NCBI GenBank assembly: GCA_963762255.1
Contig: CAVXKA010000001.1
Span: 1,568,001 to 1,632,000, forward strand
DNA length: 64,000 nucleotides
Source of the DNA: Candidatus Eiseniibacteriota bacterium
GTDB taxonomy: Bacteria; Eisenbacteria; RBG-16-71-46; JABDJR01
Reading direction: 5' to 3'
Position 1 is the first letter of the stretch, and each line of letters starts with the position of its first letter. The notes below the pieces were generated by a model. The model was not told the DNA's origin. It saw nothing but the letters and a program-made list of their open reading frames with translations, and searched no databases. The translations under genes and the position numbers were made by a program. Below, one piece after another: positions 4,180 through 61,617 of the stretch.

Positions 4180-4848
4180 ATGCAGCGAGAACATGGACTG
4201 CGTCCGCAGTCGCGAGGCGAGGAGATCGCCAACAGCATCAGCCACGGGGTCGGCTTCCTCGCAAGCCTCGTGGGGGCTCCGTTCCTCATCGTCGCCGCGG
4301 TGCGCGAGGGGAGTGCGTGGAACGTGGTCGGCGCCAGCATCTTCGTGGCGTCGATGACGCTGCTCTACCTCTCCTCCACTCTCTATCACGCAATCCCCCA
4401 CGAGCGCGTGAAGCGGGTCTTCTGGGTCTTCGATCACGGCGCCATCTACCTGCTCATCGCCGGCACCTACACGCCGTTCACTCTAGGCGTCTTGCGGGGA
4501 GGTTGGGGCTGGACGCTCTTCGGTCTGGTATGGGGGATGGCCATCCTGGGGATCACGCTCAAGTCGGTGGGGCGCATTCGGCATCCGGTCTGGTCCACCG
4601 CCCTCTATCTCGGGATGGCGTGGTTGATCGTGATCGCGGTGCGCCCCCTGAGCCAGCATCTGCCGCTTCCGGGCCTCATCTGGTTGGGAATGGGTGGATT
4701 GTTCTACACCGGCGGCGTGGGCTTCTACGTGGCCAGGAAGGTGCGCTACAGCCATCTCGTGTGGCACTTCTTCGTGCTGGCCGGCACCGCGTGCCACTAC
4801 TTCGCGATCTTGTGGTACGCGTCGAATCCGAGGGAGTACTTGCGATGA
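4180..4848 (+). CDS. hemolysin III / PAQR family membrane protein
   Basis: EEIANSISHG, SSTLYH, DHGAIYLLIAGTYTP, HLVWHFFV, CHY. Confidence 0.92.
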   Translation: MQREHGLRPQSRGEEIANSISHGVGFLASLVGAPFLIVAAVREGSAWNVVGASIFVASMTLLYLSSTLYHAIPHERVKRVFWVFDHGAIYLLIAGTYTPFTLGVLRGGWGWTLFGLVWGMAILGITLKSVGRIRHPVWSTALYLGMAWLIVIAVRPLSQHLPLPGLIWLGMGGLFYTGGVGFYVARKVRYSHLVWHFFVLAGTACHYFAILWYASNPREYLR

Positions 4849-4945
4849 CACGACGAGTCGTCTCTGCCGCGACGCTCGTGGTCACGATTCTGCTCGCCAC
4901 CGGTGGGGGTCCGCCGGACGCGAAGCATTCGACAAGGAGGGGACC

Positions 4946-5429: not shown

Positions 5430-6575
5430 ATGACGCGCGAGATTCCCACCCTGCTCACCTCCCGCCTCACCTTGCGGCCGCTGCGTGCGGACGACCTCGA
5501 CGCTTTCCATCGGATCCTCTGCGAGCCGGACGTGCTGCGCTACTTCCCGAAACCCGAACCGCCATCGCGCGAGCGTGTGCGCGAGATCATCGAGGTTCAA
5601 GAGCGACACTGGGCGGAGCGCGGCTACGGCTGGTGGGCGGTTTCCCTCCGAGGTGCCGACGATTTCATCGGCTGGTGCGGCCTGCAGTACCTCCCCGACA
5701 CCGACGAGGTGGAGGTGGCCTGCCTGCTCGGTTCCACACATTGGGGGAAGGGATACGCCGTGGAAGGGGGCGCCGCGGCCCTCGCGTATGGATTCCGCGA
5801 GCTAGGGGCGAAGTCGATCGTGGCCGTCGTCCATCCGCAGAACTCGAACTCGCGCCGCGCGGTCGAGAAGCTCGGCTTGGCCTTCACCAACGACGCCTGC
5901 TACTTCGGCATGGACGCCCGTCGCTACGCGATCGATCGGGCCGCGTTCGCTGCGTGTGCGGGGGCGGGCGCGCGGCCCGGGAAGGCCGCCACGAAGTTCG
6001 AAGATCTCACGACGCCGCGACTCGTTCTGCGCCGGCTCCGCTCGGAAGATGCCGAATCGATGTTCCGCTACCGCTCACACCCGGTGGTCTCGCGATTCCA
6101 GAGTTGGGCGCCGGGAGCGCCGTCGGTGACCGCGGCCTTCATCGAGGAGCAGATCCGCATCGAGCCTGACACACCGGGGACGTGGTTGCAGCTCGGCATC
6201 GTCGCCAGCGACTCGGGCGAGCTCATCGGCGATTGCGGGATCCACTTCCCGCCGGGAACGAGCCACGACGTGGAACTGGGGATAACGCTGGCCGCGCAGC
6301 ACCAGGGACGCGGGTACGCGATGGAAGCACTGGAGGCGGTACTCGAGTACGTGTTCGAGCGGCTGGGGAAGCGACGCGTTTACGGTTCGGTCGATCCCCG
6401 AAACGCCCGGTCGCTCCATCTCCTGGAGCGGGCCGGGCTGCGCCGGGAAGCGCACTTCCGCGAGAGCCTGTGGTTCAAAGGGGCGTGGGCGGACGACGTG
6501 ATCTATGCCATGCTGGTGGGCGAATGGCGCTCGATGCGCCCGGCGCGGGTCGTCGATCGCGGAGGGTTCGACTGA
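5430..6575 (+). CDS. tandem RimJ/RimL-type GNAT acetyltransferase
   Basis: Two repeats of T.RL.LR...WG/QG.GYA.E...N..S..L.EK/R.G. Confidence 0.88.
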   Translation: MTREIPTLLTSRLTLRPLRADDLDAFHRILCEPDVLRYFPKPEPPSRERVREIIEVQERHWAERGYGWWAVSLRGADDFIGWCGLQYLPDTDEVEVACLLGSTHWGKGYAVEGGAAALAYGFRELGAKSIVAVVHPQNSNSRRAVEKLGLAFTNDACYFGMDARRYAIDRAAFAACAGAGARPGKAATKFEDLTTPRLVLRRLRSEDAESMFRYRSHPVVSRFQSWAPGAPSVTAAFIEEQIRIEPDTPGTWLQLGIVASDSGELIGDCGIHFPPGTSHDVELGITLAAQHQGRGYAMEALEAVLEYVFERLGKRRVYGSVDPRNARSLHLLERAGLRREAHFRESLWFKGAWADDVIYAMLVGEWRSMRPARVVDRGGFD

Positions 6576-32246: not shown

Positions 32247-32960
32247 ATGAAAGCGCTGGTCATCATTCCGACCTACAACGAAGCCGACAACGTCCGCGAA
32301 CTCCTGCCGCGCGTGCTGGAGCAACACGAGGGCATCGAGATCCTCGTGGTGGACGACAACTCCAAGGACGGCACCGGCGCCATCGTGGAGGAGATGCTCC
32401 GCAGCGAGCCGCGTATCCACGTACTGCACCGGCCGGGCAAACTCGGACTCGGTACCGCCTACGTGGACGGTTTTCGGTACGCGCTTGCGCGCGACTACGA
32501 CTTCGTTTTCGAGATGGACGCCGACTTCAGCCACGAACCCGACTCCATTCCGGCTTTCCTGGAAGCGATCCAAGAGGCCGATCTCGTGGTCGGATCCCGC
32601 TATCTGAACGGGGTCACCGTGGTGAACTGGCCGCTCTCGCGTCTCATCCTCTCTTACGGCGCCAATGTCTACACGCGCATCGTCACCGGGATGCCGCTCA
32701 AGGACGCCACCGGCGGGTTCAAGTGTTTCCGCAGCACCGCGCTCGCCCAGCTCGATCTGGATCGGGTCAGCTCGGACGGCTACGGTTTCCAGATCGAGAT
32801 GAACTTCAAGATCACGAAGAAGGGTCTGCGGGTTCGCGAGATCCCCATCGTATTCGCCGACCGGCGGGTCGGGATCAGCAAGATGAACAAGAAGATCGTC
32901 TGGGAAGCGATGTGGCTGGTGTGGAAGCTGCGCGCGCTCGATCTGACGGGAAGGCTCTAG
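32247..32960 (+). CDS. polyprenol monophosphomannose synthase
   Basis: IPTYNE, VDDNS.DGT, GKLGLGTAY, MDADFSH, DATGGFK, GY.FQIE, SKM. Confidence 0.92.
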   Translation: MKALVIIPTYNEADNVRELLPRVLEQHEGIEILVVDDNSKDGTGAIVEEMLRSEPRIHVLHRPGKLGLGTAYVDGFRYALARDYDFVFEMDADFSHEPDSIPAFLEAIQEADLVVGSRYLNGVTVVNWPLSRLILSYGANVYTRIVTGMPLKDATGGFKCFRSTALAQLDLDRVSSDGYGFQIEMNFKITKKGLRVREIPIVFADRRVGISKMNKKIVWEAMWLVWKLRALDLTGRL

Positions 32961-32961
32961 C

Positions 32962-35900
32962 GTGGCCGACGTCTCCGTCGTCATCGTCTCCTATCGCACG
33001 CCGGAGCACCTGCGCCGCTGCCTGGAGGCGTTGCGGGGCGATCCCTCCCCGCGGTCCCGCGAGATTCTGGTGGTGGACAACGCCTCGGGGGACGAAAGTC
33101 CCGACGTGGCTCGCTCCTTCCCCGAGGTGCGCCTCATCGAGACCGGCGCCAACCTCGGTTTCGCGGGGGGGGTGAACCGAGGCCTCGCCGAGGCGACCGG
33201 CCGCTTCATCGCCGTGCTCAACCCGGACATCGAGACCGCTCCCGGCGCCCTCGACGTTCTCGTCGATTTTCTGGAAGGTCACCCGGAGTCCGGCATCGTC
33301 GCTCCCAAGTTGCTGAACGCCGATGGATCGCTCCAGCACTCCTGCCGCCGCTACTACACGTTGAAGACGATCCTCCTGCGGCGCACCTTCCTCGACCGCT
33401 TCTTCCCGAACTCGGCCAGCCTGCGCAGCCATCTCATGCTCGACTACGACCATGCGTCGCCGCGCGCGGTGGATTGGGTGGCGGGCGCGGCGATGATGGT
33501 GCGACGCGAAGCGCTCGACGACGTCGGGCCCATGGACGAACGCTACTTCCTCTACTTCGAGGACGTGGATTGGTGCCAGCGCATGCAGGCGCGCGGCTGG
33601 CTGGTGCACTACGTTCCCGCCGCGATCATGACGCACGGCTGGCAGCGCGCGAGCGGCGCCCTGGGGCAGGCGGCGCGGCGCCACCTCGGGAGCGGACTGC
33701 GGTTCTACGACCGCTGGGGCGGGCTCCTCCTCGTGCTGCGCCGAAACGGCAGACTGTGGCGCATCGCCGCGCTCGTGGCGATCGATCTGGTGGCGGTATC
33801 CGCCGCCTTCGTGCTCGCCTATGTCTTCAGGCAGCGCGTGGCCTTCGTTCTCCACAAACCGTTGTGGTCGTTCTCCTTCTACAGCGGCTTCTTTGCGGCA
33901 AGCGTGCTGGTCACCATGGGGGCGTTCGCCCTGCAGAACCTTTACCGTGACGTGAAGGAAGGGGATTGGGTGGACGTGGCGTTCCGGGTGATCCGGGGCA
34001 CTACTCTCGGCGCCCTGATCCTCATGGCCAGCACCTTCATCCTCGACATGCGCTCCTACTCCCGCGCCATCGTGCTCGGTTCATGGCCGCTCGCCGCCGT
34101 CCTCGTCTTCCTGGGACGACGCGCGCTGCACGCGACGTTTGCGCGCGCCCGCCGCGACCGCTGGAACCTGCGCCGAGTGGCGCTCTTGGGCGTCGATCCC
34201 GCGCTCGACGTGCTCGAGCGCACGCTGCACGAACACCCCGAGCTGGGCTGGGAGCCGGTCCGGCTGCGGCGCACGCCCTGGCTGGACCTCCCCCCGCGCG
34301 AGGCGGAGGAAGTCCTTCTCGGCCGGCTGGCCGGCGAGCGCGTGTCCGACGTGGTCGTGACGCCGGCGTCGCTGGGCGTGAGCGAGGAGGATCTCACCGC
34401 GAGACTCCTCCCCGTGCGTCGCGCGGGTCTGGGTGTGCGCGTGGTCTCCTCGTTCGTGGCGGGTCTCCCGCCGAGAGCGCGCGTGGAGCGGGTGGGGGAG
34501 ACTTCGTGGCTCACGCTCGAGGGCGCCGGCTTGCGGCACGCGGGATGGAGCAAGCGGGCGCTGGACGTAGCGGCCTCGTCTCTGCTCTTGGTGCTCGGCG
34601 TGATCCCGTTCGTGCTCCTGTGGGCGGCGCGCCTTCCGCACGGTACCGTGTGGGAGCCGCCGGAGGTGCGGATCGGACGCTGGGGCGAGACGTTTTCCGT
34701 TCGCCGGCTTTCCGGCAAAGGGCGGCTGCGCTCGTTTCCCCTTCTGTTCGCCGTCCTTCGGGGACGGCTCAGCCTCGTCGGGCCGCGCCCGCTGGGCCCG
34801 GAAGAGGACGTGCCGGGAGGCGAGCCCTGGCGGCGCGTCCGCGAGAACCATCGGCCCGGCCTCGTCGGTCCGTGGAGCCTCGCCCCCGCAGGGTCTCCGG
34901 ACGACGAGATGCGGCAGGAACTGTGTTATCTGGAAGAATGGACTCCCGAGTTGGACTTGAAACTATTGACCCGCGTCGCGCTCCGGCGCCCGCGCGGAGA
35001 AAAGGGGAACGGAGCGGTGCGTAACGCGTCTGCCCGAGCGTCCGCGGTCACCCTCATCGCCGGTCTCGCGCTGGTTCTTGCCGCCGCGCCCTCCGCGCGG
35101 GCGCAGAACGTCGCCGAGGCCTTCACCCCCTACGTGAACGCGTGGGATCTGCGGGACATCGCCACCGATACGTCGGGCCGGCTGTGGATCGCCTCCAACG
35201 GCGGCGCGCTCCGCTTCGATCCCGGCACCCAAGTGTTCACCCAGTTTCCGCGGCTCCTCGGTACCGGTCCCCGCGGGAACGATCTCGTCACGGTGGCGGT
35301 CGACCAGACCGGAAAGGTCTGGTTCGGCAGCGCCTCGCGCGGATTCACGTTCTACGATCTCACCACGGGGGATTGGGACCGGCGCGTGGCCGACGATTGG
35401 TCCGATCCGCGCATCCGCGTGATCCGCACCTTCGGGGCCGGCGTGTACGTGGGGACGCAGGACGGTCTGACCCTGAAACCGACCCCGAACCGCAGCGACG
35501 TGTGCGCTTCGGCGGCGCCGGGGTGCCTTCTGCCGTCCTATGTCGTGAACGATTTCGCGCTCGTCGGCTCGAATCTTTGGGTGGCTACTCAAAGCGGTCT
35601 CGGACGATTCAACGGGGAGAGCTGGGACAGCTCGGCAGTGTTACCGCCGGGATCGGTGGGGTACAACGCGCTTTCCATCGTCGACTTTGACGGCACGCTG
35701 TGGGAGGCGTCCGCGGGCAACCGATCGGTGCGCCGGCTGGTCGGAGGCGACTGGGACACCACCGGGGCCGCGGCGGATCGTCTGGTGGTGACCGGCGGCA
35801 GCCTCTTCGGCCTTCGGGGGACTCAGGTTCTGGAGTGGAACCAGGCGACGGAGTCGTGGGACGTTGTGACGCTCCCGGTGACCCCGCCCGGCACCGTCAA

Positions 35901-37293
35901 CGACGTGGAAGTGGTGGGCGACACCATCTTTCTCGCCACCGCGCGCGGGCTCGCCTTCGGACCTCGCGGATCGTCGAGCGGCGGGGAGATTCGCGTCCCG
36001 CCGGGCCCCGCACTTGTCGATGTCTACGCCGGGATCGCCGTCGACGCCGACGGCACGGTCTGGGCCGGCACGCAGGGCGCGGAGGTCGGTCTTGTGCGGT
36101 TCGACGGGAGCGCGTGGAGCGTGCTGCGAGGAGGGGACAAGTTAGGCGGAGACTGGATCTTCGATGTCCTCAGCGACGGCGAAGGACGCATCTGGATCGG
36201 CCACTGCTGTTGCTCGGAGATAGACCACTGCCAGCTCGAATTCGGTTCGGGCACTGAGTTCACCAAGCTCCCCGCGCTGCGCAACGCGTACCAGATCGCC
36301 GAGGACTCGCAGGGCCGCATCTGGGGCGGCACCGACCGCTACGGCGCGTTCGTGCTCCAGGAGCAGGGCGCGGACGACTGGCAGCAGGTGCTCGATCTGA
36401 CCCAGGCCGGTACCGGAGGGGCTCTGGCGTCGAACTCGATTCGCGACATTGCGGTGACCGGCAATGGGACGTATTTCGGCAACCGCCTCGCCGGTCTCGA
36501 CTACTGGCCCCACGGCGGGAACCTCGCCAACGGGAGCAGCGGCTCGAACTGGACTCACGTCGGCGATACCGGTTTCAGCCTCTACGATCTCAACGTCGGC
36601 GCCATCACGCCTGCGGGGAGCGATGTGTGGGTGGGGACGAGCACCGGCCTCCATCGATTCCGCGATGGAGTTCTTCTCAACCGCTGTCCGACCTCTCTCG
36701 CCGATCTCGTCGACGACCAGGCCCGCCCCGTCACCGCGCTGGTTGCAGATGGCCTGGGCGGGCTCTGGGTAGGCACCTCCGATGGGTTGCTTCACCTGCC
36801 GCGGGGCGGCGCATGCAACCAGAGCGATCGGGGATTCGCGCTCTATACCGAGGACAACTCGGCGCTGCCCAGCAACGCGATCCACTCCGGCGCACTGAAT
36901 CCCAAGGACGGATCGGTGTGGTTCGGGACCGCCTCCGGCCTGGTGCGGATCGATCCCGCCAAGCTCAACCCGGGCGATGCGCCGGAAGACCAATACGTGC
37001 TCTACCCCAACCCGTTCGATCTCAGCCTCGGCAAACGGGTCACCTTGGGGATCGAGATCGCGGGGACGCTGGTGCAGGGGGTGGCTCTGGCGGACTTCGG
37101 TCGCCCCGAGGTGTTTGACCTCACCGGGCGCAAGGTCGGCGTGTTCGACGTCTACAACGACCGCGGCCGGCAGACCTGGGTGTGGTTGGGCAAGAACCTG
37201 AACGGCGACTCGGTGGTCCCAGGCCTGTACCTGGTGCGGGCCCGCGCGGTGACCGGCGAGACCGTCGTGCTCAAGCTGGGAGTGCGCTGGTGA
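32962..37293 (+). CDS. 1443-aa ORF: GT2 (WbbL-like) + degenerate WcaJ-like sugar transferase + PorZ-like beta-propeller protein with CTD; possibly two genes
   Basis: VDNAS.D, NLGFAGG.N, LNPD, DWVAGA, YFLYFEDVDWC; 4 TMs + RRVALLG; KRALD...LSLVGPRP; internal signal-peptide-like segment from GTG 35017. Confidence 0.75.
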   Translation: MADVSVVIVSYRTPEHLRRCLEALRGDPSPRSREILVVDNASGDESPDVARSFPEVRLIETGANLGFAGGVNRGLAEATGRFIAVLNPDIETAPGALDVLVDFLEGHPESGIVAPKLLNADGSLQHSCRRYYTLKTILLRRTFLDRFFPNSASLRSHLMLDYDHASPRAVDWVAGAAMMVRREALDDVGPMDERYFLYFEDVDWCQRMQARGWLVHYVPAAIMTHGWQRASGALGQAARRHLGSGLRFYDRWGGLLLVLRRNGRLWRIAALVAIDLVAVSAAFVLAYVFRQRVAFVLHKPLWSFSFYSGFFAASVLVTMGAFALQNLYRDVKEGDWVDVAFRVIRGTTLGALILMASTFILDMRSYSRAIVLGSWPLAAVLVFLGRRALHATFARARRDRWNLRRVALLGVDPALDVLERTLHEHPELGWEPVRLRRTPWLDLPPREAEEVLLGRLAGERVSDVVVTPASLGVSEEDLTARLLPVRRAGLGVRVVSSFVAGLPPRARVERVGETSWLTLEGAGLRHAGWSKRALDVAASSLLLVLGVIPFVLLWAARLPHGTVWEPPEVRIGRWGETFSVRRLSGKGRLRSFPLLFAVLRGRLSLVGPRPLGPEEDVPGGEPWRRVRENHRPGLVGPWSLAPAGSPDDEMRQELCYLEEWTPELDLKLLTRVALRRPRGEKGNGAVRNASARASAVTLIAGLALVLAAAPSARAQNVAEAFTPYVNAWDLRDIATDTSGRLWIASNGGALRFDPGTQVFTQFPRLLGTGPRGNDLVTVAVDQTGKVWFGSASRGFTFYDLTTGDWDRRVADDWSDPRIRVIRTFGAGVYVGTQDGLTLKPTPNRSDVCASAAPGCLLPSYVVNDFALVGSNLWVATQSGLGRFNGESWDSSAVLPPGSVGYNALSIVDFDGTLWEASAGNRSVRRLVGGDWDTTGAAADRLVVTGGSLFGLRGTQVLEWNQATESWDVVTLPVTPPGTVNDVEVVGDTIFLATARGLAFGPRGSSSGGEIRVPPGPALVDVYAGIAVDADGTVWAGTQGAEVGLVRFDGSAWSVLRGGDKLGGDWIFDVLSDGEGRIWIGHCCCSEIDHCQLEFGSGTEFTKLPALRNAYQIAEDSQGRIWGGTDRYGAFVLQEQGADDWQQVLDLTQAGTGGALASNSIRDIAVTGNGTYFGNRLAGLDYWPHGGNLANGSSGSNWTHVGDTGFSLYDLNVGAITPAGSDVWVGTSTGLHRFRDGVLLNRCPTSLADLVDDQARPVTALVADGLGGLWVGTSDGLLHLPRGGACNQSDRGFALYTEDNSALPSNAIHSGALNPKDGSVWFGTASGLVRIDPAKLNPGDAPEDQYVLYPNPFDLSLGKRVTLGIEIAGTLVQGVALADFGRPEVFDLTGRKVGVFDVYNDRGRQTWVWLGKNLNGDSVVPGLYLVRARAVTGETVVLKLGVRW
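35017..37293 (+). CDS. PorZ-like secreted two-component-regulator-type beta-propeller with FlgD/T9SS-like CTD (probable independent start)
   Basis: GGAG RBS + GTG; signal peptide ending ARA|Q; repeated D..G..W.G[TS]..G[LA] blades; YPNPF...VFDLTGRKV...WLGKNLNGDSVVPGLYLV...KLGVRW. Confidence 0.7.
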   Translation: MRNASARASAVTLIAGLALVLAAAPSARAQNVAEAFTPYVNAWDLRDIATDTSGRLWIASNGGALRFDPGTQVFTQFPRLLGTGPRGNDLVTVAVDQTGKVWFGSASRGFTFYDLTTGDWDRRVADDWSDPRIRVIRTFGAGVYVGTQDGLTLKPTPNRSDVCASAAPGCLLPSYVVNDFALVGSNLWVATQSGLGRFNGESWDSSAVLPPGSVGYNALSIVDFDGTLWEASAGNRSVRRLVGGDWDTTGAAADRLVVTGGSLFGLRGTQVLEWNQATESWDVVTLPVTPPGTVNDVEVVGDTIFLATARGLAFGPRGSSSGGEIRVPPGPALVDVYAGIAVDADGTVWAGTQGAEVGLVRFDGSAWSVLRGGDKLGGDWIFDVLSDGEGRIWIGHCCCSEIDHCQLEFGSGTEFTKLPALRNAYQIAEDSQGRIWGGTDRYGAFVLQEQGADDWQQVLDLTQAGTGGALASNSIRDIAVTGNGTYFGNRLAGLDYWPHGGNLANGSSGSNWTHVGDTGFSLYDLNVGAITPAGSDVWVGTSTGLHRFRDGVLLNRCPTSLADLVDDQARPVTALVADGLGGLWVGTSDGLLHLPRGGACNQSDRGFALYTEDNSALPSNAIHSGALNPKDGSVWFGTASGLVRIDPAKLNPGDAPEDQYVLYPNPFDLSLGKRVTLGIEIAGTLVQGVALADFGRPEVFDLTGRKVGVFDVYNDRGRQTWVWLGKNLNGDSVVPGLYLVRARAVTGETVVLKLGVRW

Positions 37294-55054: not shown

Positions 55055-56119
55055 TCAGTCGAGGGCGCGGATCGGCACCGGGACGAGCGCGATGGGACCG
55101 TCCCCGGCCAGGAAATCGTCCACGATGGTTCCGTTTGCGAGGTCCACCACCACGACCGCATCGAGATCGAAGTTGGCGGCGTAGAGGCGGCCCTGAACCA
55201 GCGCGAGCGCGGAGTAGCCTGACTCGGGCAAGAGAGGATTTGCCGTCGTGCGCAGCGCGTTGAAGCCGGCGGTGTCGTAGGCGAGGATCCCGCCGTAGAA
55301 CCCGGCGAGGTAGGCCGTGCCGTCCAGCGCGAGCGCCACGCGCTGCGGCGATCCTCCGAGCAGAAGGGTGTCGCGAACCGCGGAGTAGTCCGCCTCCAGG
55401 CGCACCACGCGGCCGGTGACGTCGCTGAAGTTACCCGTACACACGACGTGCAAACGCGCGTCGGCGCCGGTGAAGATCGTCTGCGGGTTGGGGGGCACGG
55501 CGAGGCGCACTCGCTCGGCGAGAGTGCTCTTGGTGAGCACGACCACCGTGCCGTTGCCGAACGCGCCGATCGTGCCCTCGAACCCGGTCAGGCTCACCGC
55601 GACCTCGGTGGGGCCGACCCAGAGGCCTTCGAGACCGGAGCCCACCGCCACGCGACGCAGCACGTTGCGAGCGTCGAGATCGATCTCGAGCAGCTCGCCG
55701 CTCAGGAAGCAGGTCACCCAGGCGCGGCGCGGATTCGCGGGATCCACTGCGAACTCCCACGGATTGGAGCCCGTGCCGGTGCCGATGCAGCCGACGGTCA
55801 GCCCGCTCGCGAGGTCCACCACGGAGATCGTGTTGTCGCCGGAGTTCACCATGTAGAGATAGTCGCCCACGACGTCGAGGTCGTTGGGCGCGCGCCCGGT
55901 GAGCCCGCGCTCCGCGAGAGGCGCGAGATCCGCCGTGTCGAGCCGCGCGGCCAGCCAATCCTCGCCGAGCGAGTTCGCCACCACGAGGTAGGCGCGTGTC
56001 GCCTCCAGTGCCGGACCTTGATCGTTCAATGTGGGGCAGAGCGTACCGGGCTTCTCCGTGCCGGAAGAGCATCCCACGACAAGCAGCGCCGCTGCGAGCA
56101 TCCATGCGTGCATCCTCAT
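55055..56119 (-). CDS. YncE/BtuG-like beta-propeller lipoprotein
   Basis: VVG-C lipobox; LY.VNSGDNTISVVDL and other YVTN-like blades; last gene of the B12-riboswitch operon. Confidence 0.8.
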   Translation of the reverse strand: MRMHAWMLAAALLVVGCSSGTEKPGTLCPTLNDQGPALEATRAYLVVANSLGEDWLAARLDTADLAPLAERGLTGRAPNDLDVVGDYLYMVNSGDNTISVVDLASGLTVGCIGTGTGSNPWEFAVDPANPRRAWVTCFLSGELLEIDLDARNVLRRVAVGSGLEGLWVGPTEVAVSLTGFEGTIGAFGNGTVVVLTKSTLAERVRLAVPPNPQTIFTGADARLHVVCTGNFSDVTGRVVRLEADYSAVRDTLLLGGSPQRVALALDGTAYLAGFYGGILAYDTAGFNALRTTANPLLPESGYSALALVQGRLYAANFDLDAVVVVDLANGTIVDDFLAGDGPIALVPVPIRALD

Positions 56120-57672
56120 CGCGACCTCACGATCCGGCCGAGAGGCATCCAGGCTCTGCCTGCATCGTCCCATCCGAAAACGAAATACACCCCGGCGGGC
56201 ACGGATCGACCGGAGGCGTCGCGCCCGTCCCAGGTGACGCGGCCTTCGCGCGCGGCCAGCGTCGATCGCTCGCGCCCCAGCGCATCGACCACACGCACTC
56301 GGGACACGCTTGGCGTAAGCGCGCTCACGGTCACCGACGCGGCAAACGGGTTCGGCCAGGCGCGGGCCGCCGGAGGCGGATGCAGATCCTGCGTCGCCGT
56401 CGTCGATCCCTGCTCGGCGCGAAAGTAGATCTCGGCGTTGCCGTGGCGGGCGTCCTGCCAGAGCACGAAGACACGACCCGCGCGGTCGGTGAGCATGGAT
56501 GGGCGCGACGATTTCCCCGAGCCGTCGCTCAATCGCGTGTCCGACGCGCCGGTGGAATCCCACGCGGAGCCGGCAGCGATCGCCTGGTAGAAGATTTCGC
56601 GGTTGAATACGGAGACGCGCGCGTCCTGCCACGTCAGATGGCGGCGTCCTTCGGCGTCGATTGCGAGCGCGGGCTCCTCGGCGCCTACACCGCCGGGGGA
56701 GACACGGCGCGGAGGCCCCCAGGCGCCGCCGGCCGGGCGCTCGCGCAAGTAGACCGCCTTGTCGCCACCGCGGGCGTCGGCCCATGCGGCAACCACGGTG
56801 CCGTCGCTCGCCACTGCCAGCGTTGCTCCGTCGGCGGAGACACCGGGAGGGGAGAGGGCGACCTGCGCGCCCCACGCACCGGCCGCACTGCGCTCGCGGT
56901 AGAGGATGCGATACGAGCCGTCGGTATTGTCGCGCCACGCAAGATGCAGTGAGCCGTCTGGACCCGCGACCAGCGCCGCGAACTGGGAATCGCCGGGATT
57001 CGCTGTGACGTTCAGGTCCGGCGCGTCGCCCGGCGCCACGTTCCACATGCCGTCCTCGCGCGACTTGAACAGGATCTCCCCGGCATCGTTATCGAAACGA
57101 TAGTCGTACCATGCGACATGGGCCACGCCGTCCGTGTCGACCGCCACGGTCGGTACGTACGAGTTGTCGCCGTTCGTCTCCGGATGCTGCGATGTGGTCA
57201 GACGCAACTCGCTGGTGGAATCTCCCCACGCCGCGCCCGGTGGGCGCACCTTCGTGAAGAGTTCGAGGTTCTGAATGCCGGCCGCACGGTAGTCGTGCCA
57301 CACCATGAGCAGCGTGTCTCCGGCAAGATATGCGAGCGCGGGGAACTTGGCGCCCAGCCCGGTCCCGACGTAGGACGGCAGGTAATCCACCGCCAGCTCC
57401 AGCGATCCCCAGGCTCCGGTCACCTCACGCGTGCGCGTGTAGATCCGGAAGTTGTTGTTCGGGCCGTCCTGTTCGGCCCACGCCGCGGTGAGACGGCCCC
57501 ACGAATCGACGGCAAGCGCGCCGTGGTTGAGCCCGGTCTCACTCACGGTGCCAGCCGTGGTGATCCTCTCCTCGGGACCCCACTCCAGGGCATGCGCGGA
57601 TGCCGGGAACGACGCGCCGAGTGCCGTTGCCGCAAGCATAAGACCCATCGTGGCGAGCAGAGCGCGTCTCAC
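56116..57672 (-). CDS. secreted repeat (propeller-like) protein with FlgD/T9SS-like CTD
   Basis: Signal peptide AHA|L; about 7 repeats P.[LV]A....G..H..W.D.R...EI[FY]; AWPNPF...DALGR...WDGRDASGRSVPAGVYF. Confidence 0.8.
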   Translation of the reverse strand: MRRALLATMGLMLAATALGASFPASAHALEWGPEERITTAGTVSETGLNHGALAVDSWGRLTAAWAEQDGPNNNFRIYTRTREVTGAWGSLELAVDYLPSYVGTGLGAKFPALAYLAGDTLLMVWHDYRAAGIQNLELFTKVRPPGAAWGDSTSELRLTTSQHPETNGDNSYVPTVAVDTDGVAHVAWYDYRFDNDAGEILFKSREDGMWNVAPGDAPDLNVTANPGDSQFAALVAGPDGSLHLAWRDNTDGSYRILYRERSAAGAWGAQVALSPPGVSADGATLAVASDGTVVAAWADARGGDKAVYLRERPAGGAWGPPRRVSPGGVGAEEPALAIDAEGRRHLTWQDARVSVFNREIFYQAIAAGSAWDSTGASDTRLSDGSGKSSRPSMLTDRAGRVFVLWQDARHGNAEIYFRAEQGSTTATQDLHPPPAARAWPNPFAASVTVSALTPSVSRVRVVDALGRERSTLAAREGRVTWDGRDASGRSVPAGVYFVFGWDDAGRAWMPLGRIVRSR

Positions 57673-59609
57673 GATCCGGCCGTGAACCCGTAACGCAGCC
57701 CCAGCAGGAACTCGCGCCCGGAGGTCGCATAGCCGCGGAGATCCTCGTAGCGTGTGTCGAAGACGTTTCGCCCCTCGATGTCGAGCCGCAGGGACGGCCG
57801 TGCCTGCCAGCGCACGCGCGCATGCCATACCGCGTATCCGTCGGACCATTTTGTATTGGCGGCGGTGAGGGGAATGCGCGCGGTTCCGCGTGCTCCCGCC
57901 GCGAATGTCCACTGCCCCATCCGCCATCCCAGCTCTCCGAAGCCGAAGGTGCGCGGCCGTCCGACGAGCTGCATGCCGCCGGTCACCGGATCGCCGGTCC
58001 GGTCCTCGGTATCGAGCCAGTTGAGCGCGGCATCGAAATACGCCGGCATCGGAACCTCTGCGATCCGATCCGGCACGCCCATCTCGCGCAGGCTCAGCGA
58101 CGCATCCGCCTCCACCCCACGCAAGCGCGCCTCGAGCACGTTGCGCGGACGCCACACGCCGTCGGCTCCTGGCGTCCACTGGATGAGGTCGGACACGCGG
58201 GATGTGAAGAGCGCGATCTGGGCGCGCGAGGCGCCTCGGCGCGCTTCTACCGCGAAATCGATATCGCTCGCGTGCTCGGGGCGCAGGTGCGGGTTGCCCG
58301 CCGCGCTGGCGCGGGCGGGCCAGAAGAGGTCGTCAAAGGTCGGGGGGCGAAACGAGGTCCCGGCGCCGGCGCGAAGCGCGATCCATCGCGAAGAGCCCGC
58401 CTCACCGACGACCGTTCGCGCGACACTGACGCGCGCGGTGCCGTGCGGTGCGAACCCCTCGATCGCGTCCGCACGCAGCGCCAGCGAGCCGCCCCAACGT
58501 CCGCGCGACTGCTGGATGAGGAACGTAGTCGCGGCCCGCCCTCTCGATACGTCGCCGTCGGTCGTGCTCTGCAGGCGGTCGGCGGTTCCGTCGACACGAG
58601 CGGTCACGTCGCCGCGGCCGAGGGTGTCCCTCCAACTCGCGGCCAGACGCAGTTGCCGGTTCTCGTGGCGGTCGTCGACCGCACCGAGCGGGTTCGCATG
58701 ATCTTCGAAGCGCCTCGTGAACGCGAACGCGGAGAGATCCATATCGAGCGATCCCGGCACGCCTTGCGCGCTCACGCCTCGCGCACCCAGCGCGACCTCG
58801 GTGAAGTCGTCCCGACGCCCGGCGCCCGGGGAGGGGAAGGCGGTGCTTCCGGGGACATCGCGGCGATCTCGACGGTGTTCCGCGGACGCCTCCAGCGAAG
58901 CCGCCCACAGCGGATGGTAGGCCGCGCGCGCGCGGAATCCCGCGCCGCTCGCGTCCGCGCTGCGATCGCCGAGGCGCGGCGACGCGGTCTCGGCACGCAC
59001 CATCCCGTCGACCGTCCATCGTCCCTCTTGCCAGCCGGAAGTTGCGCGCAAGAGCCCTCGGCCTTCCGTTCCCGCCGCGATCCTCAACGCGGTCTCCGGC
59101 GCGCGATCCTCGCGGCGGACGAGGTTCACCGCCCCGCCCAGAGCTTCGGGACCGTAGAGAGCGCCCACCGCGCCGCGCACGATCTCGATGCGGTCGAGCG
59201 ACTCCGGGTCCAGCGGGCCGAGATCGACCCCGCCGCCCTGCGCGGTGTTGAGCGGGCGCCCGTCCACGAGGACAGCCACGCGGTCGGTGGGGAGCCCGCG
59301 CAGAGAGACACCGCGCGACTGGCCGTCGCCGAGGTCGATCATGCGGAGGCCGGCCACGGAAATCATCGCGTCGGCAAGATCGATCGGATCGCGCCGCAGG
59401 AGCCAGGCGCGGTCGAGCACCGTGCGCGCGCCCGGTTCAGCCGGAACCGGGCGATAGCGCGGCGCGCTGACGCGGATCGGTGGGAGCGTGTAGGTGGGGA
59501 GTTCGGCCACGAGCGTCGTGTCGACAGGGGCGCGACTCGGCCGGGCCTGCGGCGCCGTCGCTCCCGCTGGCGAAAACAGAAGCGCGCAGACGATGAAGAG
59601 CGCGCTCAC
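57669..59609 (-). CDS. btuB: TonB-dependent receptor, BtuB-like
   Basis: Plug SLRG.....V.VLVDG, RIEIVRG...ALYG..ALGG.VN; SFRPPTFDDLFW...GNP.L.PE; NVFD..Y; under a cobalamin riboswitch. Confidence 0.82.
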   Translation of the reverse strand: MSALFIVCALLFSPAGATAPQARPSRAPVDTTLVAELPTYTLPPIRVSAPRYRPVPAEPGARTVLDRAWLLRRDPIDLADAMISVAGLRMIDLGDGQSRGVSLRGLPTDRVAVLVDGRPLNTAQGGGVDLGPLDPESLDRIEIVRGAVGALYGPEALGGAVNLVRREDRAPETALRIAAGTEGRGLLRATSGWQEGRWTVDGMVRAETASPRLGDRSADASGAGFRARAAYHPLWAASLEASAEHRRDRRDVPGSTAFPSPGAGRRDDFTEVALGARGVSAQGVPGSLDMDLSAFAFTRRFEDHANPLGAVDDRHENRQLRLAASWRDTLGRGDVTARVDGTADRLQSTTDGDVSRGRAATTFLIQQSRGRWGGSLALRADAIEGFAPHGTARVSVARTVVGEAGSSRWIALRAGAGTSFRPPTFDDLFWPARASAAGNPHLRPEHASDIDFAVEARRGASRAQIALFTSRVSDLIQWTPGADGVWRPRNVLEARLRGVEADASLSLREMGVPDRIAEVPMPAYFDAALNWLDTEDRTGDPVTGGMQLVGRPRTFGFGELGWRMGQWTFAAGARGTARIPLTAANTKWSDGYAVWHARVRWQARPSLRLDIEGRNVFDTRYEDLRGYATSGREFLLGLRYGFTAGS

Positions 59610-61231
59610 GGCAACAGAACCACGCGGCTCACCGCGGTGCGCGCGCCCTGGCATGCGCGAATGAAATAGATGCCGGGAGACACTCCCTGCATCTCCCATG
59701 TCGCGCCTGTCGCGCCGGGAGCGATCCGAGTCGTCGCGGCAATCCGTCCCGCGGCGTCGATGAGGGCAACGTGAATCACCCCGTCGTCGCCGCCCGAGAC
59801 CGCCAACGCGAGCGCCCCCCGCGCGGGGTTCATCGCGGGGCGCACGGCCAGCGGGGGGTGCGCGGAGGGTGCGTGCTGCGCCTCTCGAATCCCCAGCACC
59901 TCGGACGATCCGTCGCGCCATGTGGCGGAGAGACGGTAGACGAGGCGCCCCGCGGGAGCATGTTCGTCCATCACGCCGGCCTTCAACCCGTCCGGCGCCA
60001 TGGTGAGATCGCTCGCTGCGACCTCAGCCACAACGGTCCAGGCGGCGTCAGAATCGGCCGCCACACAGGGCCCGATGGCCTCGTCCAATGCGGGCGGTCC
60101 GTCAACGGCCCGCGCCACCGAGAACCGCACGGCATCGGCGTCGCGATCGACGGTCCAGCGCACGCTGACGCCGCGCGCGGTCGATTCCGCGGTGAAGGCG
60201 AGCAGCCGCACCGGCACCGCCGCTTCGGGGAGCAAGGCGAGCCACGATGGCCCGTCTCCCGTCGGGAAAGTCGCTTCCGGCGTGCAGTCGCTCAGTTGAA
60301 CTCGAACCAGGAGGTCGTCGCCGTAGAGCGCCACGTAGAGATGCCCGGCTCCATCCGCAAGCATTCCGGAGTACCCGGCGCCGCCGAAGGCGATAGGGTC
60401 GGTGAAGGAGTGGAGCACCTCGCGCGTGGAGGTCCGGTAGCTTGCGATGCCGCCGAAATAATCGCTCGCGTAGCCGACGCCATCAACGATCTCCAGATAC
60501 CCGGGGCTTCCCCCCAATAGCACGGTGTCGACGGGGGCGAGAGCGGCGATGGAGACGACATGGATTTCGCCGAACACGGAGAAATAGTTGCCGGTGCAGA
60601 TCACGTGCAGCTCGCCTCCCGTCGCGTGCATCCACTGCGGATTCAGCCCCACCGGGACCGTTCCCAGGTTCGCGAGTGAGCCGGCATCGAGGACGGTGAG
60701 CGCGCCGGGGTCGTATCCGAAATCGGTGAGGCGAATGCCGGAATCGGCGACGTAGAGCCGCCCGTCGACGAGCAGCAACCCCTCGGGGGCCCGCCCCACC
60801 GCGACGCGGCCGACTTCGGTGCCGCCCGCGTCGAACTTGACGACCTGGCTCGTGAGAAAGAGCGACGCGTAGACGTCTCCCGCGTCGTTCACCGCCACCG
60901 CATACGGGTTGGTCCCGACGCCGGTGCGCAGGGTGTCGAGCGGGTCCAGCGTAGATGCGTCCAGCACCATCAGGAGGTCGGCACCGGACACCGCGACGTA
61001 GAGCTTTCCACCGTGAACCGCCGCGTTCCCGGGGAATCCGGGAAACGTGAAGGCGTTCAGCGTGGACTGGCCGGTGGCGAGATCCACAAGGGACAGTGTG
61101 TTGTCGTTTCCGTTGAGAATGGCCGCTCGAGGGGCGGCTGACACGGGTGCAATGAACGCGGGTGCGATGAACGCGGGCGCGGCGAGCGCGGCGAGACCGA
61201 AGAAGAGGAGTCGGAAGAGCGAACGGTGCAT
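59606..61231 (-). CDS. YncE/BtuG-like beta-propeller with Sec signal, PV.L..F.A Ig-like domain and T9SS-like CTD
   Basis: GGGAGG RBS; no lipobox Cys; YVTN-like blades; AVPVRLLAFTAE; NPARG...IDAAGR...PGIYFIR...RVVLLP. Confidence 0.8.
   Translation of the reverse strand: MHRSLFRLLFFGLAALAAPAFIAPAFIAPVSAAPRAAILNGNDNTLSLVDLATGQSTLNAFTFPGFPGNAAVHGGKLYVAVSGADLLMVLDASTLDPLDTLRTGVGTNPYAVAVNDAGDVYASLFLTSQVVKFDAGGTEVGRVAVGRAPEGLLLVDGRLYVADSGIRLTDFGYDPGALTVLDAGSLANLGTVPVGLNPQWMHATGGELHVICTGNYFSVFGEIHVVSIAALAPVDTVLLGGSPGYLEIVDGVGYASDYFGGIASYRTSTREVLHSFTDPIAFGGAGYSGMLADGAGHLYVALYGDDLLVRVQLSDCTPEATFPTGDGPSWLALLPEAAVPVRLLAFTAESTARGVSVRWTVDRDADAVRFSVARAVDGPPALDEAIGPCVAADSDAAWTVVAEVAASDLTMAPDGLKAGVMDEHAPAGRLVYRLSATWRDGSSEVLGIREAQHAPSAHPPLAVRPAMNPARGALALAVSGGDDGVIHVALIDAAGRIAATTRIAPGATGATWEMQGVSPGIYFIRACQGARTAVSRVVLLP
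61144..61180. repeat. 15-bp tandem repeat (about 2.5 copies) encoding APAFI in a signal peptide
   Basis: cgggtgc[a/g]atgaacg x2 + cgggcgc. Confidence 0.7.
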
Positions 61232-61311
61232 GGTGAAAGCCTCCCTTTCCACGCAGGGTGGCCTTCGAGACGGCGGGATCGGACGGCGGCGCGAGGCCCG
61301 GCGAGGCGGGC

Positions 61312-61347
61312 AAAAAGAAACCCGCCTCGAGAAGATGCCGAGACGGG
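61312..61347 (-). terminator. intrinsic terminator in the riboswitch expression platform
   Basis: CCCGUCUCG-9 nt-CGAGGCGGG followed by UUUCUUUUU. Confidence 0.75.
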
Positions 61348-61390
61348 CGCACCGTCGGTCGTCCTCACCTCCTCGAAGGACATGACTTCG

Positions 61391-61579
61391 CGTCCGCGAC
61401 CGGTCTCCTGACTTGCGGGTCGTCCTCGGGTCGCCCCTTCCCGGAGGATTGATCCTCCAGTGGGTTCGTTCTCGCCGGGCGCGTCTTCCACCGCGCGTCG
61501 CCGAGATGCGACCGTCGTCGCCGCTCACAGTGGCGGGTCCGTGCCGGATTCACACCGGCTTCCCGTATCACCGCGGACG
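61391..61579 (-). ncRNA. cobalamin riboswitch
   Basis: GGGAAGCCGGTGTGAATCCGGCACGGACCCGCCACTGT...CCACTG...GGGAAG...AGTCAGGAGACC, closed by P1 CGTCCGCG/CGCGGACG. Confidence 0.95.
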
Positions 61580-61588
61580 TTTGCCGGC

Positions 61589-61617
61589 AGCATACTCGCG
61601 CATGAAGCCCCGGTCAA
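61589..61617 (-). promoter_or_regulatory. sigma70 promoter of the riboswitch/btu operon
   Basis: TTGACC-17 bp-TATGCT ending 10 bp before the riboswitch P1. Confidence 0.75.

Follow-up and report, generated by a model that had tools for sequence, protein, structure and literature searches.

A predicted B12-repressed corrinoid-uptake operon from an Eisenbacteria genome combines a BtuB-like transporter with two BtuG-like propellers, one of which carries a type IX-like sorting domain

B12 is produced by few microbes and required by most, and the devices that capture it shape communities; to our knowledge, BtuG and the proteins that work with it are the only surface B12 catchers of such a type to have been characterised, and all come from gut Bacteroides. 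Here we analyse a four-gene operon at positions 55055..61617 of a 64,000-nucleotide stretch of DNA (the window) from the genome of a Candidatus Eiseniibacteriota bacterium (assembly GCA_963762255.1, contig CAVXKA010000001.1, positions 1,568,001 to 1,632,000). Our reading, to which we assign a probability of roughly 0.7, is that the operon encodes a B12-repressed corrinoid-uptake system of the outer membrane, made up of a BtuB-type importer (the product of the second gene, g2), two BtuG-like corrinoid catchers (g1 and g4) and a BNR-like protein (g3); the coordinates of genes, domains and leader elements are collected in Table 1. An earlier note, made from the sequence alone, had described this operon and suggested that g1, which ends in a sorting domain of the type IX secretion system (T9SS) in place of a lipid anchor, could act as a released or glycolipid-anchored 'cobalophore'.

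The strongest argument for a B12-related role of the propellers is their genomic context. The promoter-like site, cobalamin riboswitch and terminator-like hairpin that the earlier note had described are all present, on the minus strand: Infernal matched the leader to the RF00174 model over its full length (model positions 1-189, E 2.9e-17) with a score above the gathering score, and this was the sole Rfam match within the window. A consensus scan of 8 kb returned 3 promoter-like sites where 0.4 were expected, and the sigma-70-like site ahead of the operon overlaps the 5' start of the aptamer. Between the aptamer and g1, the stem of the terminator-like hairpin (61348..61320) comprises 11 pairs, 7 of them G-C, and is followed by TTCTTTTT. 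Against its assignment stands the minimum-energy fold of the whole leader, in which another hairpin forms and the U-run makes up its loop, and the element is therefore treated as a candidate expression platform, its role as a terminator being plausible but unproven.

A locus scan with one genome per species yielded 53 related loci, referred to by L numbers, of which the 38 best were examined for gene content and 34 (all of these except L055-L058) for Rfam matches. The nearest loci belong to metagenome-assembled genomes (MAGs) named Candidatus Eisenbacteria or Eiseniibacteriota, and the propeller family extends to records of Gemmatimonadota, Calditrichota, Ignavibacteriota, Zixibacteria, WOR-3, Cloacimonadota, Acidobacteriota, Spirochaetota and Thermodesulfobacteriota. 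Among the 38 best loci, 33 contain a g2-like transporter gene, which nearly always immediately precedes that of the propeller, whilst RF00174 lies upstream on the same strand in 22 of the 34 loci scanned (6 of 10, 8 of 13 and 8 of 11); by our own count, the contig ends before the expected place in 8 of the 12 loci in which it was not found. The exact four-gene order recurs in related MAGs of both Eisenbacteria (L021, L022) and Gemmatimonadota (L044, L051), i.e. in 4 of the 38 best loci, and in all four the riboswitch immediately precedes the g1-type gene. One Ignavibacteria record (L028) carries tandem cobalamin aptamers upstream of its transporter-propeller pair (4634-4879 and 5471-5692; 55.7 and 58.1 bits).

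The designation of g2 as a BtuB-like receptor is borne out by profile searches. The protein matches the Plug (80.8 bits) and TonB-dependent barrel (102.2 bits) models of Pfam, and its best match among 32 NCBIfam families is the TonB-B12 family TIGR01779 (E 1.9e-48). When a profile of 19 g2-like transporters from related loci was searched against solved structures, the top PDB matches were BtuB1 from Bacteroides thetaiotaomicron (1.5e-79), E. coli BtuB (1.5e-75) and BtuB2 (1e-70), with the next match after the BtuB entries (BtuB3 included) and Cir at 4.9e-49. Weighing against a strict assignment, g2 scores below the equivalog cut-offs for BtuB (TIGR01779: 165.5 against 599.7; NF007926: 93.5 against 836). 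Being closest to the solved BtuB structures and having a B12 riboswitch upstream, g2 is predicted to be a BtuB-like transporter.

The two propellers are paralogues of each other (34% identity over 284 residues, E 4e-31), and their description as YncE/BtuG-like is supported by both fold and profile comparisons. AlphaFold models were obtained with a predicted local distance difference test (pLDDT) score of 86 for g1 and 93.8 for g4. Among the matches listed by Foldseek for g4, ranks 2-17 are all BtuG, with TM-scores (TMt) of 0.72-0.78 for stand-alone chains, and the next family is AztD with a TM-score of 0.49; for g1, ranks 2-13 are all BtuG, with TMt values of 0.71-0.80 for stand-alone chains and root-mean-square deviations mostly of 2.6-3.4 Å. 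The 626-residue BtuG1 chain of 8blw gives TMt values of 0.42 (g4) and 0.41 (g1). By sequence, the BtuG1 entries (8ptd, 8ptf and 8blw chain B, with PDB identities taken from passages of the literature) are matched at E 2e-9 by g4 and E 3e-6 by g1. A profile of the 60-member g4 family aligns with BtuG1, BtuG2 and BtuG3 in a single stretch each: along almost the entire length for BtuG3 (7e-20) and BtuG2 (4e-18), and for BtuG1 (1e-24) along roughly two thirds of the profile (positions 44-281 of 342).

Several observations weigh against so direct a link to BtuG. An archaeal YVTN S-layer propeller (1l0q) outranks BtuG in every sequence and fold search, although its profile match consists of three repeat-level stretches where those to BtuG are single collinear alignments, and the YVTN repeat model TIGR02276 is found in g1 (35.5 against a cut-off of 27.85). 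The YVTN/YncE propellers (1l0q and E. coli YncE) are thus the best sequence and fold match of g1 and g4, but unlike these they have no known association with btuB or B12 riboswitches. Moreover, neither g1 nor g4 nor any other protein of the host genome matched the Pfam family DUF5074 (PF16819), taken to represent BtuG, at E<=1, with the genome of B. thetaiotaomicron as a control that did match; within the families, DUF5074 is found at E<=0.01 in 10 of the 60 members for g4 and in 2 of the 14 for g1. Given the higher rank of YVTN and the unmatched DUF5074, it is mainly the genomic context that ties the propellers to B12.

A mixed picture is also obtained from the ligand contacts of BtuG2, as given in passages of PMC10404256, which we mapped by eye onto the g4 family through the alignment with BtuG3 (eight residues served to check the offset of 11). 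In this alignment, an amide or hydroxyl side chain is preserved at four positions: Gln93 is replaced by Asn in 58 of 60 members, Asn107 by Ser in 59, Ser131 by Asn in 55 and Gln219 by Asn in all 60, and the aromatic character of Tyr335 is retained as Phe in 55 of 60. On the negative side, the Glu55-Gly56-x-Phe58 loop of BtuG2 and BtuG3 is an insertion absent from the g4 family, the Arg of the S-P-R motif is changed to Trp, Tyr or Phe, and Trp194, Ser195 and Trp272 are not retained. As BtuG1 of B. thetaiotaomicron itself shares only about 60% of its ligand contacts with BtuG2 (passages of PMC10404256), this mixed conservation leads us to class g1 and g4 as a sister family of BtuG that probably works in a BtuG-like manner, outside the DUF5074 family. 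A further feature of the g4 family is the almost invariant motif HVVCTG[ND][YF] (Cys in 55, Thr in 54 and Gly in 60 of 60 members), found at 60583-60606 of the window in g1 and at 55426-55449 in g4 (residues 224-231); it occupies the end of a strand on the face corresponding to the one with which BtuG binds B12, and BtuG3 has a Thr at the position of the Cys in the alignment made by eye.

The propellers differ in what surrounds them. g4 has the lipobox expected of the lipoprotein it had been taken for, and no further domain follows its propeller. The lipid cysteine is not followed by an obvious acidic export signal of the Bacteroidetes type, as judged from the sequence rather than with a scoring matrix; such a signal is described for Bacteroidetes lipoproteins in passages of PMC6143338. 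In g1, a Sec-type signal without lipobox precedes the propeller, and the proposed PVxLxxFxA linker corresponds to the segment VPVRLLAFTA (residues 340-349), with which the middle beta-sandwich opens; in the AlphaFold model, a second beta-sandwich at the C-terminus covers residues 462-540. We considered this middle domain as a generic spacer ahead of C-terminal sorting domains and rejected the idea, as blastp and jackhmmer found it in no other open reading frame (ORF) of the host genome. In another locus of the phylum (L086, 916-1479), the C-terminal region of a BNR-like protein is 25% identical to the middle beta-sandwich and sorting domain of g1 (residues 339-540, E 2.5e-9); the domain, although unique in the host genome, therefore occurs on other cargo elsewhere. 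The signal peptide of g1 (61136-61231) contains a tandem duplication, APAFIAPAFIAP, that is absent from its three closest relatives.

Cargo proteins of the T9SS of type A are anchored via PorU and anionic lipopolysaccharide (LPS). As in such cargo (C-terminal domain of PorZ, 5m11), a beta-sandwich of some 80 residues forms the very end of g1 and g3, but they differ in that their tails stay below the generic cut-offs and in that the host lies outside Bacteroidota. In the case of g1, the tail reaches 15.1 against 27 with PF18962 and 18.2-22.0 against 23 with TIGR04183; for g3, the values are 25.8 against 27 with FlgD_ig and 15.7 against 23 with TIGR04183. This stands against the assignment, whilst a profile made from the host itself argues for it. 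TIGR04183 matches 82 places of the genome at E<=0.01, 71 of them above the cut-off, and we built a C-terminal domain (CTD) profile from 66 of the 68 tails plainly above cut-off, omitting two whose match ends more than 12 residues from the stop; the tails of the operon were not part of it. In a search of all 19,620 stop-to-stop ORFs of the genome with a length of 100 residues or more, the profile matched g3 with 44.1 bits (E 1.6e-11), the alignment breaking off 20 residues short of the C-terminus, and g1 with 33.8 bits (E 2.6e-8), running to the last residue. In addition, a g3-family profile matches the PorZ CTD (5m11) at E 2.3e-6 as well as Ig domains of FlgD, and PF18962 is found at E<=0.01 in 9 of the 14 members of the g1 family. 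The claim of T9SS- or FlgD-like tails thus holds with the profile of the host genome and fails at the cut-offs of TIGR04183, PF18962 and FlgD_ig, and from sequence comparison g1 and g3 are both predicted to end in T9SS-type sorting domains.

Regarding the secretion machinery, for which the earlier note had named SprA, PorV and PorU, we found SprA in the host genome above its cut-off (356.7 bits) and a PorU-like protein just below (402.4 bits against 420), the gene of which directly adjoins that of a PorV-like protein. In weighing a T9SS-like route it has to be set against these that the PorV-like protein is only weakly matched (81.7 against 250), that full-length PorZ was not found in the host genome, and that a search of the genome for GldM gave no match, where the control likewise matched in no genome. 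Based on SprA, the adjacent PorU/PorV-like pair and the many CTD tails, the host therefore probably exports numerous cargo proteins by a T9SS-like route. Elsewhere in the window, a 1449-residue ORF (32947-37293, plus strand) matches with its C-terminal part the end of the PorZ model (588-743; 54.9 bits) and appears to encode a large cargo protein of the T9SS type.

How the propellers of this family are attached to the cell was analysed on a pool of 161 proteins from the g1 and g4 searches and 48 propeller ORFs cut from loci, of which we retained the 185 that were shorter than 700 residues and had a single near-complete propeller; six fragments or frameshifted rows were then removed by hand to leave 179. 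Anchor labels, assigned by our own rules (the genome CTD profile and regular expressions) with 15 corrections by hand, gave 84 lipoproteins, 65 proteins with a T9SS-type CTD, 27 with a dockerin-like tail, one with a C-terminal transmembrane (TM) segment and two unclear cases. On a FastTree phylogeny of the propeller domains alone, at least 23 changes of anchor label are needed, the well-supported branches by themselves requiring at least 10-11, and several sister pairs with support of 99-100 carry different anchors. A quick IQ-TREE phylogeny of 107 rows has 17 changes, in a biased sample whose rows were hand-picked partly for such pairs. The dockerin-like tail, of about 60 residues, replaces lipobox or CTD in propellers of Ignavibacteriota, Zixibacteria and Acidobacteriota that stand beside a riboswitch-controlled transporter (L023, L028-L034, L037, L038, L041, L045, L046, L053 and L058); the Pfam model Dockerin_1 is matched by 1 of the 60 members of the g4 family (E 2.1e-6).

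Since the CTD form must end outside the outer membrane and is frequently exchanged with the lipoprotein form, the lipoprotein forms are argued to be surface-exposed as well. The lipoprotein form is the sole propeller beside the transporter in many lineages, and in a Zixibacteria locus (L042) the riboswitch and transporter are followed by a CTD-tagged propeller with no second propeller in 11.5 kb. The CTD form being both common (65 of 179) and, as in L042, found by itself, we favour an alternative surface anchor over a special released form, and the trees argue that the CTD is one of several equivalent and interchangeable modules for surface display.

The idea of the earlier note that one paralogue has exchanged its lipid anchor for a secretion tag needs correction in that g1 did not derive from g4 by a recent exchange of this kind. 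In Eisenbacteria, the g1-type genes group in a clade made up of CTD forms throughout (17 rows with support 97 in FastTree; 14 rows with support 98 in IQ-TREE), whereas the g4-type genes of Eisenbacteria and Gemmatimonadota fall into a group of lipoproteins throughout (25 rows, support 91 in FastTree). Forcing the g1-type and g4-type genes of Gemmatimonadota into one clade cost 179.7 log-likelihood units (approximately unbiased (AU) test, p 2e-17), the test referring to the Gemmatimonadota pair and to a constrained group that was defined in knowledge of the tree. A recent duplication giving rise to g1 and g4 is rejected by the separate clades in both phylogenies and by the AU test, and the two genes are best understood as old, separate lineages that are each common to Eisenbacteria and Gemmatimonadota. 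A lipoprotein together with a second propeller of a different lineage is also encoded in the WOR-3-like loci L039 and L047 and in L024. As paired propellers recur across lineages, the keeping of two differently targeted catchers is taken to be a recurrent, selected arrangement; this would be the best argument for a division of labour between distal capture and lid, though not for release.

The third gene appears to belong specifically to operons of this kind. Its product combines a signal peptide with seven W-x-D-x-R repeats at a spacing of 50-60 residues, for which BNR_4 (PF15892) scores 26.3, under its gathering cut-off of 27.3; the same model is found at E<=0.01 in 33 of 37 g3 orthologues. 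A search of solved structures with the g3-family profile left the propeller part unmatched by sequence, the tail alone being matched, and a comparison of the propeller with the ESM Atlas gave only leads below 0.9, to BNR-like clusters. Within the phylum, g3-like matches occur in 34 of 206 species genomes and near-full-length g3 in six, the host included in both counts; these genome counts and those of named MAG loci possibly overlap in the same genomes and are not independent. Outside the host genome, 5 of 5 full-length orthologues lie between the transporter and the propeller, from which we conclude that g3 belongs to this kind of operon, whereas at 24 loci with weaker g3-like matches no transporter or g4-like propeller was found within 1.5 kb. 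Across loci, g3 is better conserved (42-63% identity) than g1 (28-43%). In other operons, a protein of about 430 residues is encoded between transporter and propellers (L024 2322-3638, Gemmatimonadota; L039 6638-7918, WOR-3-like); it carries Por_Secre_tail above the Pfam cut-off (27.8 and 37.3 bits), its N-terminal part matches nothing in Pfam or the PDB, and it would represent another T9SS-tagged accessory that is unrelated to g3.

Table 1. Features of the operon and its leader (positions in the window; bases as far as stated).
Feature	Position	Strand	Basis
Sigma-70-like promoter, TTGACC-17-TATGCT	61589..61617	minus	consensus scan only
Cobalamin riboswitch aptamer, RF00174	61381..61607	minus	77.1 bits, gathering score 31.5
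Terminator-like hairpin with U-run, candidate expression platform	61311..61348	minus	11-pair stem followed by U-run
g1 (541 residues): Sec signal, BtuG-like seven-bladed propeller, beta-sandwich, T9SS-type CTD	59606..61231	minus	
g1 propeller domain, residues 35-334	60230..61129	minus	AlphaFold model, Foldseek
g1 middle beta-sandwich, residues 343-453	59873..60205	minus	AlphaFold model
g1 predicted C-terminal sorting domain, residues 462-541	59609..59848	minus	own-genome CTD profile
g2 (646 residues): BtuB-like TonB-dependent transporter	57669..59609	minus	profile scans
g3 (518 residues): signal peptide, seven W-x-D-x-R repeats (BNR_4-like), FlgD_ig/PorZ-type CTD	56116..57672	minus	
g3 predicted C-terminal sorting domain, approximately residues 439-518	56119..56358	minus	own-genome CTD profile, PorZ CTD match
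g4 (354 residues): lipoprotein (LVVGC), BtuG-like seven-bladed propeller	55055..56119	minus	

The four genes are tightly packed, whilst the overlaps of 4 nucleotides ascribed to them hinge on the choice of start codons. With the starts chosen here, the junctions g1/g2, g2/g3 and g3/g4 read GTGA, GTGA and ATGA; an alternative ATG of g2 at 59654 would extend its overlap with g1 to 49 nucleotides, and the 510 residues given for g3 in a public collection are consistent with an ATG at 57648. The packing is tight either way. The G+C content at third codon positions is 0.81-0.87 in the chosen frames, and a Shine-Dalgarno-like GGAAAGGGAGG precedes the ATG of g1 at 61231. On the 3' side, g4 is followed by a formiminotransferase gene (FTCD_N, 261.6 bits) that has its own promoter-like site, g4 being the last gene of the operon; the divergent neighbour upstream is a gene for a sensor histidine kinase.

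Taken together, the operon may work as follows. At low intracellular cobamide, the riboswitch would permit production of the four genes, with g2 acting as TonB-dependent, BtuB-like importer. g4 would reach the cell surface by means of its lipid anchor and cap the transporter as a lid. g1 would be exported by Sec and then through its T9SS-type sorting domain, the CTD being processed so that the protein is attached to the surface or shed; with its beta-sandwich as a spacer, it could form a second and more distal corrinoid catcher that passes the ligand on to g4 and g2 or docks on g2 itself. g3, a BNR-like propeller whose tail is of the same type, would complete the set as a fourth surface protein specific to the system. 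Of this scheme, the RNA switch, the gene order with its conservation, the folds, the sorting domains and the occurrence of SprA and PorU/PorV-like genes come directly from the analysis; we infer corrinoid binding by the propellers, the surface location of g4, the identity of the lid and the fate of g1 (retention or release), and the specific combination of g4 as the lid with a surface-tethered g1 is given somewhat less than even odds, albeit more than any of its competitors.

The first of these competitors is the release of g1 into the medium, where as a soluble 'cobalophore' it would take up corrinoids far from the cell and bring them back to g4 and g2 in the manner of a hemophore, a reading which we regard as unlikely. 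The absence of a lipid anchor and the presence of the T9SS-type CTD are in its favour, as are the additional domain seen in no other ORF of the host and the maintenance of two propeller lineages side by side in two phyla, and the failure to find full-length PorZ, which delivers anionic LPS, in the host genome fits release better than attachment. However, the exchange of CTD and lipobox between close relatives (the pairs with support of 99-100) and the CTD-tagged propeller of L042 as sole partner of its transporter are both explained more simply if the CTD forms are surface-bound, and a PorU-like sortase is present. HasA-HasR and HmuY-HmuR are hemophore systems that feed TonB-dependent transporters. 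These share with the operon the idea of an extracellular or surface-located ligand catcher feeding such a transporter, but differ from it in folds, ligand and export routes, the release of g1 being a proposal.

A similarly low probability is given to g1 and g4 serving as alternative lids for g2, each with its own corrinoid preference and with no relay between them. Both have BtuG-like folds, either type of anchor can be found on the sole partner of the transporter in other lineages, and the BtuG paralogues of B. thetaiotaomicron have only about 60% of ligand contacts in common (passages of PMC10404256); on the other hand, the operon provides a single transporter gene for two lids, whereas the Bacteroides BtuGs described in passages of PMC6143338 and PMC10404256 each come with a BtuB of their own. 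It is improbable, in turn, that g4 faces the periplasm and takes over the corrinoid below the transporter, leaving g1 as the only lid on the surface: although no BtuF/BtuC-type inner-membrane system was found in the host genome and no obvious acidic export signal of the Bacteroidetes type follows the lipid cysteine, the at least 17-23 interchanges of lipoprotein and CTD on the trees argue for one shared location outside the outer membrane, and many lineages have the lipoprotein form as only propeller beside the transporter. Least probable of all is that the propellers bind no corrinoid, the operon importing another B12-regulated nutrient or the propellers being enzymes or structural surface proteins, since the first rank of a generic YVTN propeller in all searches, the unmatched DUF5074 and the missing part of the BtuG contacts are outweighed by the linkage of riboswitch, transporter and propeller in 22 of 34 loci from many phyla, by BtuB as the closest relative of g2 and by Asn at the positions of BtuG Gln93, Ser131 and Gln219 in 58, 55 and 60 of 60 members.

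The favoured reading, corrinoid uptake by a BtuB-type importer with two propeller catchers, has also to be viewed in the light of the B12 physiology of the host. B12-binding domains score above cut-off in five ORFs, and no cobyric acid synthase (CobQ) was found above cut-off in the host genome, and the organism therefore probably relies on imported corrinoids. It speaks against a complete import pathway of the known type that no permease of the FecCD/BtuC type was found above cut-off in this 93.6%-complete genome. The only other cobalamin riboswitch of the genome (contig C1 4398-4581, minus strand, 101.7 bits) lies ahead of genes for an ABC permease (BPD_transp_1) and for a binding protein of the NMT1/THI5-like type (locus L076 2058-4501); judging by this arrangement, the two could form an unconventional inner-membrane importer of corrinoids or their precursors.

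When compared with BtuB-BtuG of B. thetaiotaomicron, as described in passages of Wexler 2018 (PMC6143338) and Abellon-Ruiz 2023 (PMC10404256), the operon has in common the control by a cobalamin riboswitch, a BtuB-like transporter adjoining a seven-bladed propeller and one propeller that is a lipoprotein, here g4. It differs in having two old paralogues per transporter, one with a T9SS-type CTD in place of the lipid anchor, in propellers that lie outside DUF5074, in the additional BNR-like surface protein, in the absence of btuFCD from the operon (none was found above cut-off in the genome) and in its phylum. The relay from BtuJ and BtuH via BtuG to BtuB, reported together with B12-binding vesicles in passages of PMC13616437, resembles the proposed scheme in riboswitch-controlled surface binders encoded with btuB, in the inward passing of corrinoids and in capture away from the cell; its accessories, however, are lipoproteins of other folds (DUF4465 and others), whereas those of the present operon are a second BtuG-like propeller and a BNR-like one, both with T9SS-type tails. 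Passages of Wexler 2018 (PMC6143338) report BtuG homologues only in Bacteroidetes among 313 gut genomes. A T9SS-tagged BtuG-like protein was not described in the literature searched, which lacked most subscription journals.

In the boldest version of our reading, which as a whole we hold to be rather doubtful, a large and, as far as our searches show, mostly undescribed BtuG-like family for corrinoid capture would extend across the Fibrobacteres-Chlorobi-Bacteroidetes (FCB) phyla and beyond, with lipid, T9SS, dockerin-like and TM anchors freely swapped. Eisenbacteria and Gemmatimonadota would then possess a four-part machine in which g1 acts as a shed or long-tethered 'cobalophore' and g3 as a new corrinoid accessory, both feeding a lipoprotein-lidded BtuB, and in which the cysteine of HVVCTG[ND]Y, for which the Bacteroides BtuGs have no counterpart, takes part in ligand binding.

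The operon and its relatives suggest that the logic of a transporter plus propeller also operates in phyla of soil and sediment without cultured members, that the attachment of the B12 catcher to the cell is modular, and that some lineages back a single importer with two catchers of different targeting plus a third, accessory protein. If this is true, these proteins would be candidates for extracellular B12 scavenging in environmental bacteria, and the family would offer a natural experiment in which display at the cell surface as a lipoprotein can be compared with display by way of the T9SS.

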